A stretch of DNA of 64,000 nucleotides, from assembly GCA_963422665.1 (NCBI GenBank), contig OY730441.1:715411-779410 (forward strand), in the 5' to 3' direction. A program made the position numbers and the translations under genes. A model generated the notes under the pieces. It saw nothing but the letters and a program-made list of their open reading frames with translations, did not search any database and was not told where the DNA came from. The stretch is from Alphaproteobacteria bacterium (lineage in GTDB: Bacteria > Pseudomonadota > Alphaproteobacteria > Bin95). Below, in pieces: positions 4,969 through 9,090 of this stretch (its first letter is position 1; each line of letters opens with the position of its first letter).

Positions 4969-7900
4969 TTACGGGGCGATCCCGGCGTCGGGCTCGCCGG
5001 CGGCGAGCGCGTTCGTCCAGGCGAGGCAGAGGTCGCGGGAGCGGTAGCCTCCCCACGCCCGGCGCTCCTGCCGTTCGACGATGGGAAAGGTCGAGTAGAT
5101 GTAGCTTATGTCGTCGCGGCCCTGCGCGATGCGGCCCGCATCGCGCGAGTAAAGATCGATGACGCCGTAGAGGTGGAAATAGAGCGCGTCCAGCTTCGCG
5201 CGGAGCATGAGCCGCCGGTCCGGCTCCCAGCGGAAGGGCGGCAGGACCTCGCCGGCTTCGTCCACATGGCCCATGTCGCGGGCGAAGGGCGCCATGTCGT
5301 GCGCCGTATAGGTCAATTCAAGCACCGCCTCGCGCACGATCTCCGCCGCCGTCTTCGGCCCGAATCGCGCCGCCTCGTAACGCTCCGGCGGCACGACGGG
5401 GAGTTGTTCGAGGACATACAAAGTGAGGTGGGTTGTGGGCACCTTCTGGCGCGCAACATAGTCGAAGACCACGGCATTCAGATTCGCTGCAACAACGCAC
5501 GCCAACAACACCCGGTCCGACTCGTGTTCTGTAATCGGCAGCAGGGGCAACGTATGTCCAGCGCCGACGCGCGGAATAATGGCCGCGATCATCGTTCGCA
5601 TGTTCGTTGAAGCGGTGATGTCCTTGAAGGAAACAACCCATGGATCGGGCCACTCCCAACGCTCCGCATCGTCCAGCACCCAATAGCGGGGTTCCGGCAG
5701 GCGGCCGGGATCGGCTTTCGCTTCTATCTTCATGTTGTCCGGCTGTCCGGTCCGGAACAGATTCTCGGGATTCACCGAAATATCGGCGGCCCGATGGTCG
5801 AACGCCTGCACCATCTTGCCTTCGTAGAGCGAAACCCACGCGCCGGAAGGGCTGTCGAAGCGGTTGCCTCCGACGGGCCAGGCGCCTTCCTTCTCCTCCA
5901 GTTCCGCGCGGGTGCGGAACAGGCCGGAGTCGTTGGCCATGTCGAACATTCGTAGATATTTCACCGGCCATGCCTTCACTTCCCCGCCGGAGGAGCGGTC
6001 CGCCAGCACGGGCAGGCGGCCGTAGATGGCGGTGGTGAGTTCCGCGTCGCGGCGCGAGCGGAAAACCGGCGCAGTGCCGGTGTTCGGGTTGACGCAGGCG
6101 AAATCCTCCGCCGTCAGGACGAAGCGGCGGTCGCTATCCGCCAGCGCCGCCGTGTCGTGCAGGAACACGGCGTATTGCGCGGCCTTGCCCACTGACGACG
6201 GGCTGGCGACGAAAACGCAGAATTTGAACGACGCGTGGACGTCGGGGAAGAAGAGCGCCGCCTCGTCGCGTTCGCGGCGCTTCCTTCCGTTTGTGCGGCG
6301 ATTCTCGAAGTCGTAGAACGCCTGCAACCGCCCTTCGGTGGCGACGCTCCTGAAGAAGGGCGCCGCTATCTTGTCGGCAGCGATGCCGGAGGGCACGAGC
6401 AGGCCGACCATGCCATCCGGCTTCGCCAGCGCCATGGCGCGCTCGACGAACAGCGAATAGAGGTTCATGTCGCCGCTCGACAGCAATGGGTAGTCGCCGC
6501 CCTCGCGCGCCATGCGGGCGGCGGCCTCGGCGCGTTCGCGGGCCGCGTCGTAGTCCGCTGTCAACGGGTCTCCGGTTTTCCGCAATGCGCCAATCATGCG
6601 CCGGCGGTCCGAGGCGCGCGGCGCAAGCGCGATTTCCGGGCGGCGTTCGGCGAACCACTCCACCTGCTGCAGCTTCATCCGCTCCCAGGGCGGGTTGCCG
6701 ATTACGGCGTCGAAGCCGCCTTCCGGCCTGCTGTTCGCCAGATGCTCCCAGACGCCGGGGAAGGAGACCTGCCAGTTCAGGAACCGCTCCGCCGCCGCCA
6801 GCTTGCGTGCGCGCTCCAGCAGCACGGCGAAGCGTTCCGCCTCCGGGCCGCCGTTTGCGGGCGCCGCCAAACCCTGCGCCATCGCCAGCGGGTCGCCGAA
6901 CCGGCCGTCGAAGAAGGCGTGGAGCGCCGCCTTGTCCTCCTTGCCGCGAACATCCAGCCAGTCGAACGCATGAATGAGCGACAGGAAACGGTCCAGCGGC
7001 GCGGTCCCCGCCTCCGCGTCGGCCCATGCCTGCGCGGATTGCTCGACCTCGGCAATTTCGGCGTCGGCGAGCGCCTCCACCGCCTGCATGGCGTTGGCGG
7101 CCGCAAGCACGGCTTGCGCCGGCCCGTTCAGCAGCGGGCCGGCGCCATGGGCCTTCGCGCGGTCCATGCCGGTGCGCACCGAGACGCCGAACAGGCTGTC
7201 GCCGCAGCGCAAATGATGGTCGAGGAAGGAGAGCGGCGCGCCCACGGTGAAGCTGTGCAGCCAGAGCGAGAGCTTGGCGAGTTCGACCGCCATCGGGTTC
7301 TTGTCCACGCCGTAGATGCAGCGTTTGAGCACCATGCGCTTCACGATATGGCGGTCGTCGAGCCGCGCCCCGTCCACCTTCCATTGGTTGGCTTTGGCAT
7401 TGGCGAGGACGGTGTTGCGCACGCCCTCGATGCGCACGGCCAGCGGCGACGTATAGCCCTCGGCGAGGGTGGCGGCGTCCGCCATCGCCATCAGCACCCG
7501 ATCCGCCAGCCAGTCCGCCAGATTGACGAGGAAATGCCCGGAGCCCATGGCCGGATCGCAGACTTTCAGCTCCAGAAGCCGTTCGGCGGGGTCGAGGCGG
7601 CGCAGTTCCGCCGGCCGCGCCCCCGCCTCCGCGGCCTCGCGGAACGCCTCCCGCCGCGCCTCCGCCAGCGGGCCGACGGTCTCCCGGACGATCAGCCCGA
7701 CAAGGTCGTCCGGCGTGTAATAGCTGCCCGACAATTTGCGGGCGAACACCCCGGGCCGGACGGCAAGGCCGCCGTCCGCCTCGCGCGCCAGCTCGTATTC
7801 GAGCAGCCGTTCGTAGATGGAGCCGAGTTGCTGGACGGAGAGGTCGCGGAAATTGATATAGTAGCGCGTGTCGGGGCCGTGGAGAAAGCACAGCCGGTCG

Positions 7901-9090
7901 ATGACCCCGGCGATGTCGTCGTTGCGGAGCCTGACGGTCGCCAGCAGCGGCGCGCGACCGGCGTCGAACAGCCCGCCATTGTAAGGCGGCAGGCCGACCG
8001 AGGCGTCGCCCCTGTCGATCACCCGGCACAAGTCGTCGATCATGCCCCAATAGCCGGTGGCGAGGCCCGAGAATTCCGCGCCTTCGTTCTTGAGCCGCCC
8101 GATCTCGTCGCGCAACCGGCGCAGGGCGAAGGGGCGGTACCGCGAGTCCCCGACCGGCAGCAGGCCGCGATCCTCCGCGTAGAGGAGGAACATCAGCCGG
8201 TAAAGCAGGATCAGCGCGGCGTCGCGGATTTCGGAGAGCGGCGTGTCGGGCGAGGCCTCGCGCGCCACCGCCCGGGCGAGCATCGGGAAGACCTCGTCGA
8301 AGACCAGCCCCGACAGATCCTCGGCGAGCTTCGCCTCGTAGCGCCGGCCCTCGTCGATCGCGCGCCGGTGGAAGGTGTCCCAGCCTTCCGGGCCGGGCAG
8401 GAAGGACTCGCGCCGGAACATGAGGAGGAACAGCCGGAGCAGCCGGCGTTGGGCCTGTTCCCGCTTCTCGTCCGCCACCGCGCCGAACAGGCCCTCGTCG
8501 AGGCCGGTCACGCCCAGGGCCGCCGCCAGGTCGATCTCGAAGAACTGCTCCGATACCGACTGCGCGCCGGACCAGTAAAGCCGCCACAGCTTGCCGTTGG
8601 TCAGAATGCCCCAGCGCAGCTTGCCGCCGGTTGCGACGGCGGCGCGGTCCAGATAGCCAAGCAATTGGGTCGCGGGCGTGGCTTCGCCGGCGGCGCGGCG
8701 GTCCAGCGGCGCCTGCCAGCGCTTGAGTTCCGCCAGCGCAAGCCCGAGCCCGTAACGCCCGGCCGGGTCATGCACGCTGTTGGCCTGCGCCTTCGCGGCG
8801 GCGTCGGCGAACAGCAGCCCGTCCGGCGTCATGCGGCGCGAGAGCGCCTGCTGGCGGATGTGCTCCGTCCAGCCGAGCCGCTCCAGCACGGGCCAGATCA
8901 GGTCGTCCTCGGTCTGCGCCTCGTTGGGCGCGCCCGACACCGGGAACCCGGCGAAAATCTCGCGGAGGTCCGCCGCAAGCCGGTCCAGCGCCGCTTCCTT
9001 GAGGTCCGTCCATTCCGGCATCCGCTGGACGGAGTTCTCAAGGAAATCCCTGGCGAACAGCGCGCCCCCAACCGCATTCGTCAAAGACAT
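4969..9090 (-). CDS. Type IIG-like restriction-modification enzyme: N-terminal HsdR-N/PD-(D/E)xK nuclease-like domain fused to a gamma-class N6-adenine DNA methyltransferase and a C-terminal specificity region
   Basis: 1373 aa. It carries MTase motif I (VCDPAMGSGHFLV), motif IV (VIGNPPWERMK), and an N-terminal PDGLLF...ELK...ILTNGKLWRLYW stretch (HsdR_N-like). There are no flanking brx/pgl or hsdS genes. Confidence 0.8.
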   Translation of the reverse strand: MSLTNAVGGALFARDFLENSVQRMPEWTDLKEAALDRLAADLREIFAGFPVSGAPNEAQTEDDLIWPVLERLGWTEHIRQQALSRRMTPDGLLFADAAAKAQANSVHDPAGRYGLGLALAELKRWQAPLDRRAAGEATPATQLLGYLDRAAVATGGKLRWGILTNGKLWRLYWSGAQSVSEQFFEIDLAAALGVTGLDEGLFGAVADEKREQAQRRLLRLFLLMFRRESFLPGPEGWDTFHRRAIDEGRRYEAKLAEDLSGLVFDEVFPMLARAVAREASPDTPLSEIRDAALILLYRLMFLLYAEDRGLLPVGDSRYRPFALRRLRDEIGRLKNEGAEFSGLATGYWGMIDDLCRVIDRGDASVGLPPYNGGLFDAGRAPLLATVRLRNDDIAGVIDRLCFLHGPDTRYYINFRDLSVQQLGSIYERLLEYELAREADGGLAVRPGVFARKLSGSYYTPDDLVGLIVRETVGPLAEARREAFREAAEAGARPAELRRLDPAERLLELKVCDPAMGSGHFLVNLADWLADRVLMAMADAATLAEGYTSPLAVRIEGVRNTVLANAKANQWKVDGARLDDRHIVKRMVLKRCIYGVDKNPMAVELAKLSLWLHSFTVGAPLSFLDHHLRCGDSLFGVSVRTGMDRAKAHGAGPLLNGPAQAVLAAANAMQAVEALADAEIAEVEQSAQAWADAEAGTAPLDRFLSLIHAFDWLDVRGKEDKAALHAFFDGRFGDPLAMAQGLAAPANGGPEAERFAVLLERARKLAAAERFLNWQVSFPGVWEHLANSRPEGGFDAVIGNPPWERMKLQQVEWFAERRPEIALAPRASDRRRMIGALRKTGDPLTADYDAARERAEAAARMAREGGDYPLLSSGDMNLYSLFVERAMALAKPDGMVGLLVPSGIAADKIAAPFFRSVATEGRLQAFYDFENRRTNGRKRRERDEAALFFPDVHASFKFCVFVASPSSVGKAAQYAVFLHDTAALADSDRRFVLTAEDFACVNPNTGTAPVFRSRRDAELTTAIYGRLPVLADRSSGGEVKAWPVKYLRMFDMANDSGLFRTRAELEEKEGAWPVGGNRFDSPSGAWVSLYEGKMVQAFDHRAADISVNPENLFRTGQPDNMKIEAKADPGRLPEPRYWVLDDAERWEWPDPWVVSFKDITASTNMRTMIAAIIPRVGAGHTLPLLPITEHESDRVLLACVVAANLNAVVFDYVARQKVPTTHLTLYVLEQLPVVPPERYEAARFGPKTAAEIVREAVLELTYTAHDMAPFARDMGHVDEAGEVLPPFRWEPDRRLMLRAKLDALYFHLYGVIDLYSRDAGRIAQGRDDISYIYSTFPIVERQERRAWGGYRSRDLCLAWTNALAAGEPDAGIAP

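Follow-up and report, generated by a model that had tools for sequence, protein, structure and literature searches.

A stretch of 64,000 nucleotides from an alphaproteobacterial genome (GenBank assembly GCA_963422665.1, contig OY730441.1, positions 715,411 to 779,410; hereafter the window) was found to carry a restriction-modification (R-M) gene whose product of 1373 amino acids (aa) joins a nuclease to a DNA methyltransferase (MTase). Judging from its sequence, its modelled structure and its analogy with described enzymes, this protein is probably a self-sufficient, single-chain R-M enzyme of a Type IIG-like kind. We likewise consider there to be a good chance that the gene is an uncharacterised member of the Type IIG single-chain R-M enzymes, i.e. 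of a kind already known. The gene and the parts of its product are laid out as follows.

4969..9090, minus strand: R-M gene, a Type IIG-like nuclease-methyltransferase fusion of 1373 aa with an ATG start, recognised by codon G+C, homologs and domain matches
8521..8943, minus strand: PD-(D/E)xK nuclease domain, aa ~50-190, with D90, E121-x-K123 and Q142-xxx-Y146
7771..8520, minus strand: helical spacer, aa ~191-440, resembling the N-terminal domain of HsdM and the spacer of MmeI
6301..7770, minus strand: gamma-class N6-adenine methyltransferase, aa ~441-930, identified by Pfam Eco57I, Foldseek and invariant motifs
4972..6300, minus strand: conserved C-terminal module, aa 931-1373 (~440 aa), the presumed DNA-recognition part, most variable at aa ~1101-1200

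Because the window is rich in G+C (~68% for its entire length and ~70% near the R-M gene), long open reading frames (ORFs) arise in it by chance, and an antisense ORF of 1285 aa (6235..10092) overlaps the R-M locus. The minus-strand ORF at 4969..9090, and not the antisense one, is the real gene. Its G+C at the three codon positions (0.71/0.47/0.87) follows the coding pattern of the genome, while the antisense ORF has 0.85/0.51/0.75. For its product, more than 6800 homologs were counted at E<=1e-10, the best 120 listed being nearly all full-length with 60-86% identity, and Pfam Eco57I matches it at 1.8e-20. An earlier note, made from the letters of the window, had called a 1373-aa ORF here, and this ORF is indeed present on the minus strand, with the coding pattern and the homologs of a gene. 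The motifs listed in that note also lie where it had put them, i.e. TPDGLLF at aa 88-94, ELK at 121-123, TNGKLWRLYW at 164-173, DPAMGSGHFL at 512-521 and NPPW at 799-802. Both the nuclease and the gamma-N6-adenine MTase that it had placed on a single chain were found in the same ORF, and its Type IIG-like interpretation is favored by architecture, motifs and the lack of partners. Neither a sigma-70-type promoter nor a convincing terminator was found near the gene.

The N-terminal domain, for which a PD-(D/E)xK nuclease had been proposed, has the catalytic residues of one. D90, E121 and K123 are all present, together with Q142 and Y146, and P89-D90, E121-x-K123 and Q142-xxx-Y146 were invariant both in an alignment of 35 homologs and in one of 58, drawn from many phyla. 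The series D...ExK...QxxxY is what we take to be the RecB/HsdR-type motif set. An AlphaFold model of aa 1-460 was confident (predicted local distance difference test, pLDDT, of 85.8) and has D90 at the beginning of a strand, E121 and K123 on the next core strand, and Q142 and Y146 on the subsequent helix. The top structural matches of the nuclease fold were HsdR, BpuSI, DrdV, MmeI and other PD-(D/E)xK nucleases. The spacer that follows is all-helical in the model, like the N-terminal domain of HsdM and PglX, and no Walker A or DEAD motif was found in the protein, the ~250 aa of the spacer included. Among 81 homologs from genome assemblies of many phyla, mean pairwise identity was 59% in the nuclease domain, 62-64% in the two halves of the MTase and 56-61% in most of the C-terminal module, going down to 39% in a helical insertion of the MTase and in aa 1101-1200. 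Since the nuclease domain is conserved to the same degree as the MTase, it can be argued that selection acts on the cutting activity.

The main rival explanation is that the protein is an orphan or regulatory adenine MTase, in which the nuclease-like N-terminal domain does not cut and is a structural or DNA-binding module only. Among 56 full-length cluster representatives with the C-terminal module, D-(E/D)xK-QxxxY is retained in 34 and K123E is seen in two, and the remaining 20, which are more distant from the R-M protein (32-38% identity), are without the nuclease motifs. The K123E exchange in two close representatives is a point in favor of an orphan enzyme, as is the existence of a sister clade, the DISARM class 1/ARMADA-like MTases, with the same body plan and the catalytic residues lost. 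The C-terminal module is moreover uniformly conserved, in the way of conserved orphan MTases. Nevertheless, the five nuclease residues are intact in the R-M protein as well as in the 34 representatives, they do not vary among the 58 closest homologs, and the domain as a whole is conserved like the MTase. Furthermore, a patchy occurrence across phyla and plasmids and a location in an insertion hot spot (both described below) suit a mobile defence gene, not a core regulator. We therefore hold an orphan MTase to be quite unlikely. The two K123E proteins (P0150 and P0170, ~50% identity), where E replaces the catalytic lysine to give D-E-E-Q-Y, may by their sequences be natural nuclease-dead variants inside the nuclease-bearing branch.

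In the MTase, motifs X, I and IV appear in this order (GSYYTP at 455, DPAMGSG at 512 and NPPW at 799), all of them invariant, and the domain is split between motifs I and IV by a variable helical insertion of ~135 aa (aa ~641-775). A model of aa 440-1373 was of moderate quality (pLDDT 62.7); with it, Foldseek gave BREX PglX/BrxX as the best match (E 5e-6), along with CamA, LlaBIII/LlaGI (Type ISP), BsaXI (Type IIB) and M.TaqI. Searches of the PDB with the single protein returned no match and those with a profile of close homologs nothing significant, and in a profile search with diverse representatives the matches fell on the MTase motifs only. The C-terminal module, for which no solved relative could be detected by sequence in the PDB, occurs in 5055 clusters at 50% identity (E<=1e-3), with most complete proteins being 1300-1400 aa long. 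If this module reads DNA, aa ~1101-1200 would be the best candidate for the specificity-determining part. Two small insertions were also seen in the module. The allele in the window carries one of ~12 aa, LYSRDAGRIAQG, at 5116-5160 (aa ~1311-1325), near the C-terminus, which is absent from most other aligned close homologs, and another, NGRKRRERDEAA, at 6253-6294 (aa ~933-946), is common only to the R-M protein and its closest clade.

Relatives of the protein, with full-length identities of 44-83%, were found in at least 582 species representatives of the GTDB, distributed over Alpha-, Beta- and Gammaproteobacteria, Binatia, Gemmatimonadota, Latescibacterota, Acidobacteriota, Chloroflexota and Bacteroidota. 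The top match among the GTDB representatives scanned (83%) came from an alphaproteobacterial metagenome-assembled genome. Full-length copies are also found on plasmids, e.g. in Pannonibacter, Sinorhizobium and Celeribacter among others, and are there annotated as 'Eco57I restriction-modification methylase domain-containing protein' or 'restriction endonuclease'. An occurrence that crosses phyla and includes plasmids is the pattern expected for a horizontally mobile R-M gene. Some copies are interrupted: the match in locus L045 is spread over 6.6 kb (10001-16579), and the copy on a Tabrizicola piscis plasmid (H7) harbors an IS5-family transposase. The sequences of both point to inactivated genes. 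Another plasmid copy, a 56%-identical homolog from Pannonibacter (L088, 4772-13202), has as its neighbors a QueC-like 7-cyano-7-deazaguanine synthase gene with a helix-turn-helix gene at one end and, directly downstream, a gene of the PLD family, an arrangement that may represent a composite defence island.

When set against described systems, the protein agrees with Type IIG enzymes in having nuclease and MTase in one chain, in its PD...(D/E)xK residues and in the X-I-IV order of its motifs. It differs from the Type IIG/IIL enzymes BpuSI, MmeI and DrdV in being ~350-500 aa longer, in the helical insertion between motifs I and IV, and in a larger C-terminal module that is conserved instead of variable. 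The spacing from PD to ExK is 30 residues, as against 15 in BpuSI, and outside the MTase motifs no match to these three enzymes was detectable by sequence. The models of the MmeI family (Type IIL) all remained below their cut-off of 27, with 20.7 bits for MmeI_Mtase, 16.1 for MmeI_hel and 14.1 for MmeI_N, and MmeI_TRD gave no match. The residues D...ExK...QxxxY, of HsdR-N/RecB type, are held in common with the Type ISP enzymes LlaGI and LlaBIII and with Type I HsdR, and the two Type ISP enzymes also matched the MTase part weakly in Foldseek. Unlike Type ISP, however, the R-M protein has no helicase-like ATPase between nuclease and MTase, the ~250 aa in this position being all-helical. A Type I system is contradicted by the missing Walker A/DEAD motif and by the lack of any hsdS or hsdM neighbor. 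As for BREX, identity to PglX/BrxX is 13-15%, the NCBIfam PglX models reached 17-31 bits against cut-offs of 400-900, no PglX match was found for the PD-(D/E)xK domain, and PglZ, BrxC and BrxL are not among the neighbors. With HsdS, HsdM, motor motifs and the BREX partners all missing, the view that the gene belongs to neither Type I nor BREX could be upheld.

Among the proteins of described systems, the closest by sequence are the DrmMI/ArmB-type MTases of DISARM class 1 and ARMADA. These have the same NPPW motif and overall length (~1300-1400 aa), but they act together with helicases (DrmA/B/D or ArmA/C/D), whereas the R-M protein is without a helicase partner. DrmMI methylates the asymmetric site ACACAG, and a DISARM class 1 cluster contains drmA (helicase), drmB (DUF1998), drmC (PLD) and drmD (SNF2) (bioRxiv 10.1101/2021.12.28.474362). 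On a plasmid of Acidithiobacillus caldus, the genes for a DEAD/DEAH helicase of 1764 aa and a helicase-related protein of 925 aa are immediately followed by that for a 1317-aa 'N-6 DNA methylase', a layout that fits DISARM class 1 or ARMADA type I. This MTase is 33% identical to the R-M protein over aa 160-1365, i.e. with the entire C-terminal module included, but its N-terminal ~165 aa are without the PD and ExK residues, and also without QxxxY, all of which the R-M protein keeps. The superfamily thus consists of a nuclease-bearing branch, which has the R-M protein inside it, and a nuclease-less branch, where helicase-associated MTases are found; to call the latter helicase-associated as a whole is an extrapolation from one locus. 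The N-terminal domain of the DISARM class 1/ARMADA MTases appears to be the same fold with its catalytic residues lost.

The R-M gene might accordingly be thought to supply the methylase of a multi-gene system of the DISARM, ARMADA or BREX type, with the partners elsewhere in the genome. The best matches in PADLOC (DrmMI) and Foldseek (PglX/BrxX) agree with this, as does the identity to the MTase of the A. caldus helicase-helicase-MTase cluster, and a PLD-family gene, of which DrmC is one, adjoins homologs in two loci. The gene surroundings tell against it. These were followed for 10 kb on either side, past the left edge of the window, by means of the near-identical contig L006 (99.3% over 13 kb), and comprise box-pathway genes, an oxidoreductase, a thioredoxin-like and a UGSC-family gene, pckA, a chvI/chvG-like pair, hprK, rapZ and genes of the phosphotransferase system. 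Genes for helicases, PglZ, HsdS, Drm, Brx or Pgl were not found within this distance of the R-M gene, and a Pfam and PADLOC scan of ten large candidate genes beyond 17 kb showed them to be metabolic, without any defence matches. The earlier note had found no hsdS, brx or pgl partners and had reckoned with brx genes just outside the window; none is present in the 10 kb on each side or conserved across 84 homologous loci. Neither were drmA, drmB, drmC or drmD found within 10 kb, among the ten candidate genes or by tblastn in the window, nor are they conserved beside the homologs. When ORFs within 6 kb were clustered over the 84 loci, no family was found in more than seven of them, and the recurring ones were on mixed sides and strands. 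The helicases of the A. caldus locus were absent from the window by tblastn, and over 87 homologous loci they gave two short weak matches only (~30% identity over ~150 aa). From the absence of a conserved neighbor and of any helicase, HsdS, PglZ or Drm partner it follows that the R-M gene should work alone. As the nuclease is intact, partners would also be unnecessary. Together with the low scores of the PglX models, this makes a multi-gene system very improbable. Two further kinds of partner were tried and rejected. A small upstream gene of controller or antitoxin type was discarded since the upstream ORFs of L002, L005 and the window are mutually unrelated, and a PLD-family partner, such as the one adjoining the Pannonibacter plasmid homolog, since it lies beside homologs in those two loci only.

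Several results weigh against a stand-alone Type IIG-like enzyme. In PADLOC the best match was DrmMI (1e-83, 280 bits), above the Type IIG models (2.7e-62 and 5.4e-58). However, the DrmMI profile has its best stretch at aa 440-803 and a second one at 158-437, so that the first ~160 aa, i.e. the nuclease domain, are unmatched, and the matches of the Type IIG models, of which that at 2.7e-62 extends into the C-terminal region, speak for such an enzyme. Foldseek returned no match for the N-terminal model (aa 1-460), and the Pfam matches of HSDR_N, MmeI_N and MmeI_hel to the N-terminal part were all below threshold. In the literature, REBASE not being covered, no biochemically characterised member of the exact family was found. 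The C-terminal module was poorly modelled by AlphaFold 2, with aa ~1020-1240 too poor for interpretation. A hypervariable target recognition domain (TRD), or wholesale TRD swapping, was looked for in this module and not found among the homologs. R-M families in which specificity diversifies usually show such swapping, and since it is missing here, the recognition role of the module is presumed and not established.

The way in which a self-sufficient enzyme of this kind would work can be pictured by analogy with MmeI, BpuSI, DrdV, PglX and DrmMI; the architecture, the motifs and the absence of partners, on the other hand, were shown here. The MTase and the C-terminal module would bind S-adenosylmethionine (AdoMet) as well as a DNA motif that is short and probably asymmetric, and one adenine per motif would be methylated in an AdoMet-dependent manner, marking the host DNA. 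Unmethylated incoming DNA would be cut away from the site, at a distance that the helical spacer may fix. With only one nuclease site per chain, at least two enzyme molecules or sites would be required to break both strands. The gene itself would move as a small cassette.

The latter is suggested by the surroundings of the gene, where the following features were identified.

3915..9205, no strand: insertion cassette of 5.3 kb (5291 bp) between convergent UGSC-family and oxidoreductase genes, with the flanks ending at 9206 and 3910-3914
9206..9220, no strand: left copy of the junction repeat, CGCCTGAGAGCGGCG (minus strand), at the 3' end of the UGSC gene
3896..3910, no strand: right copy of the junction repeat, CGCCCGAGGGCGGCG (minus strand), at the 3' end of the oxidoreductase gene, with a 13/15 match to the left copy
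4404..4499, minus strand: relic consisting of the last 34 codons and the stop of an R-M allele, 91.7% identical over 96 nt to 4970-5065, in direct orientation
4585..4947, plus strand: geneB, 120 aa, its product having a transmembrane segment and a coiled coil; it converges on the R-M gene, at 21 nt from the stop of the latter, and contains 42-bp tandem repeats (4816-4928)
3951..4328, minus strand: geneA, 125 aa, its product likewise having a transmembrane segment and a coiled coil; it contains 54-bp tandem repeats

The order within the cassette is leader, R-M gene, geneB (convergent), the 96-nt relic and geneA. Its G+C (0.69) equals that of the flanks, and it carries no integrase. Apart from this insertion, the chromosome here is a housekeeping one in its gene content. 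In L090, which has an 87% identical flanking gene, the UGSC and oxidoreductase genes are convergent and slightly overlapping, and thereby represent the empty site (12381-12399). The same site holds ankyrin-repeat and SPM/EF-hand-like genes in the 94% relatives L091 (11873-16523) and L092, and in L091 also a DDE_3 transposase. The UGSC/oxidoreductase junction is thus an insertion hot spot. Each insert is bordered by short direct repeats of the gene ends that overlap at the empty site: the 15-nt junction repeats correspond to the segment where the flanking genes overlap, and a ~45-nt repeat has the same role in L091.

The partial 3' duplicate and the coiled-coil cassettes that the earlier note had placed beside the R-M gene were both recovered, the former as the relic and the latter as geneA and geneB. 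The similarity of the relic to the end of the R-M gene begins abruptly and continues through the stop codon. An 84% identical R-M gene was found with geneB at a different chromosomal site in L007, and the block shared with the window (4517-9155) contains the R-M gene, 65 nt upstream of it and geneB, and comes to within 18 nt of the relic. In L005 and L008 the shared part is limited to the R-M gene (4977-9153), and geneA is situated upstream of it there but downstream in the window. On the simplest reading, the relic would be the last 96 nt of a resident allele, with geneA after it, left behind when an incoming block of R-M gene and geneB replaced the rest. The copies differ by 8%, which is easier to explain by two alleles than by a duplication of recent date. 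Other histories are conceivable, among them a permuted circular intermediate and a deletion in L007.

The small genes open up yet another reading, in which the R-M gene forms a two-gene module with geneB or geneA, whose product would regulate or localise the enzyme. GeneB does lie beside the R-M gene at two chromosomal sites (that of the window and L006, and that of L007), and geneA adjoins it in L005, L008 and the window. Yet both are confined to the closest relatives and absent from the other ~80 loci, and their positions relative to the R-M gene vary. A two-gene module is therefore the least probable of the explanations considered here, and a gene acting on its own is preferred. Another geneA-like copy, also counted against such a module, is a diverged stretch far from the R-M gene (21824-21997, plus strand) with 39% identity over 72 aa. 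The 54-bp repeat of geneA (4060-4227) has 3.1 copies that are 98% identical, and the number of copies varies between contigs that are themselves 99.3% identical, with a product of 125 aa in the window and 143 aa in L006 (14763-15194).

Beside the insert, a conserved alphaproteobacterial cluster (9732-18669) contains a thioredoxin-like gene of 454 aa, pckA, the chvI/chvG-like pair, hprK, rapZ, EIIA-Man, HPr and ahcY, and is syntenic in L006, L090 and L091. On the other side, a boxC-like dihydrolase is found at 110-1516, with a TIGR03222 match just under the cut-off. Directly upstream of the R-M gene, the UGSC-family gene (9214-9735, minus strand; PF24696 in the annotation of L006) is split by an in-frame TGA at 9451-9453. 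The codons A-D-TGA-G-S-C coincide with the U-G-S-C motif of the family, and this TGA is probably a selenocysteine codon and not a stop. A hairpin that begins at the TGA has a folding energy of -21.9 kcal/mol, which is no better than that of shuffled sequence (z -0.83).

Lastly, the kinship with helicase-associated MTases allows a more far-reaching proposal, which we put forward at low confidence and hold to be rather unlikely. The R-M family may be a stand-alone, nuclease-bearing sister clade of the DISARM class 1/ARMADA MTases, the helicase systems having taken up a Type IIG enzyme whose nuclease they later inactivated, or events having run the other way round, and the C-terminal module, which is 40-60% identical across phyla and never swapped, might be a sensing or oligomerisation module and not a classic TRD. 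If this were true of the module, the enzyme would tell self from non-self in another way than textbook Type IIG enzymes do. Should the enzyme be active, it would represent a compact one-gene restriction system with a wide occurrence among bacteria of many phyla from soil and water, and a characterised member could add a new specificity to REBASE. The local history, an insertion at a hot spot plus what is left of an allele since replaced, illustrates the turnover of R-M genes. None of this overturns current understanding, and the gene is an ordinary one apart from its kinship with the DISARM/ARMADA methylases, for the class 1 and ARMADA forms of which a characterised member of the family could serve as a tractable single-protein model.

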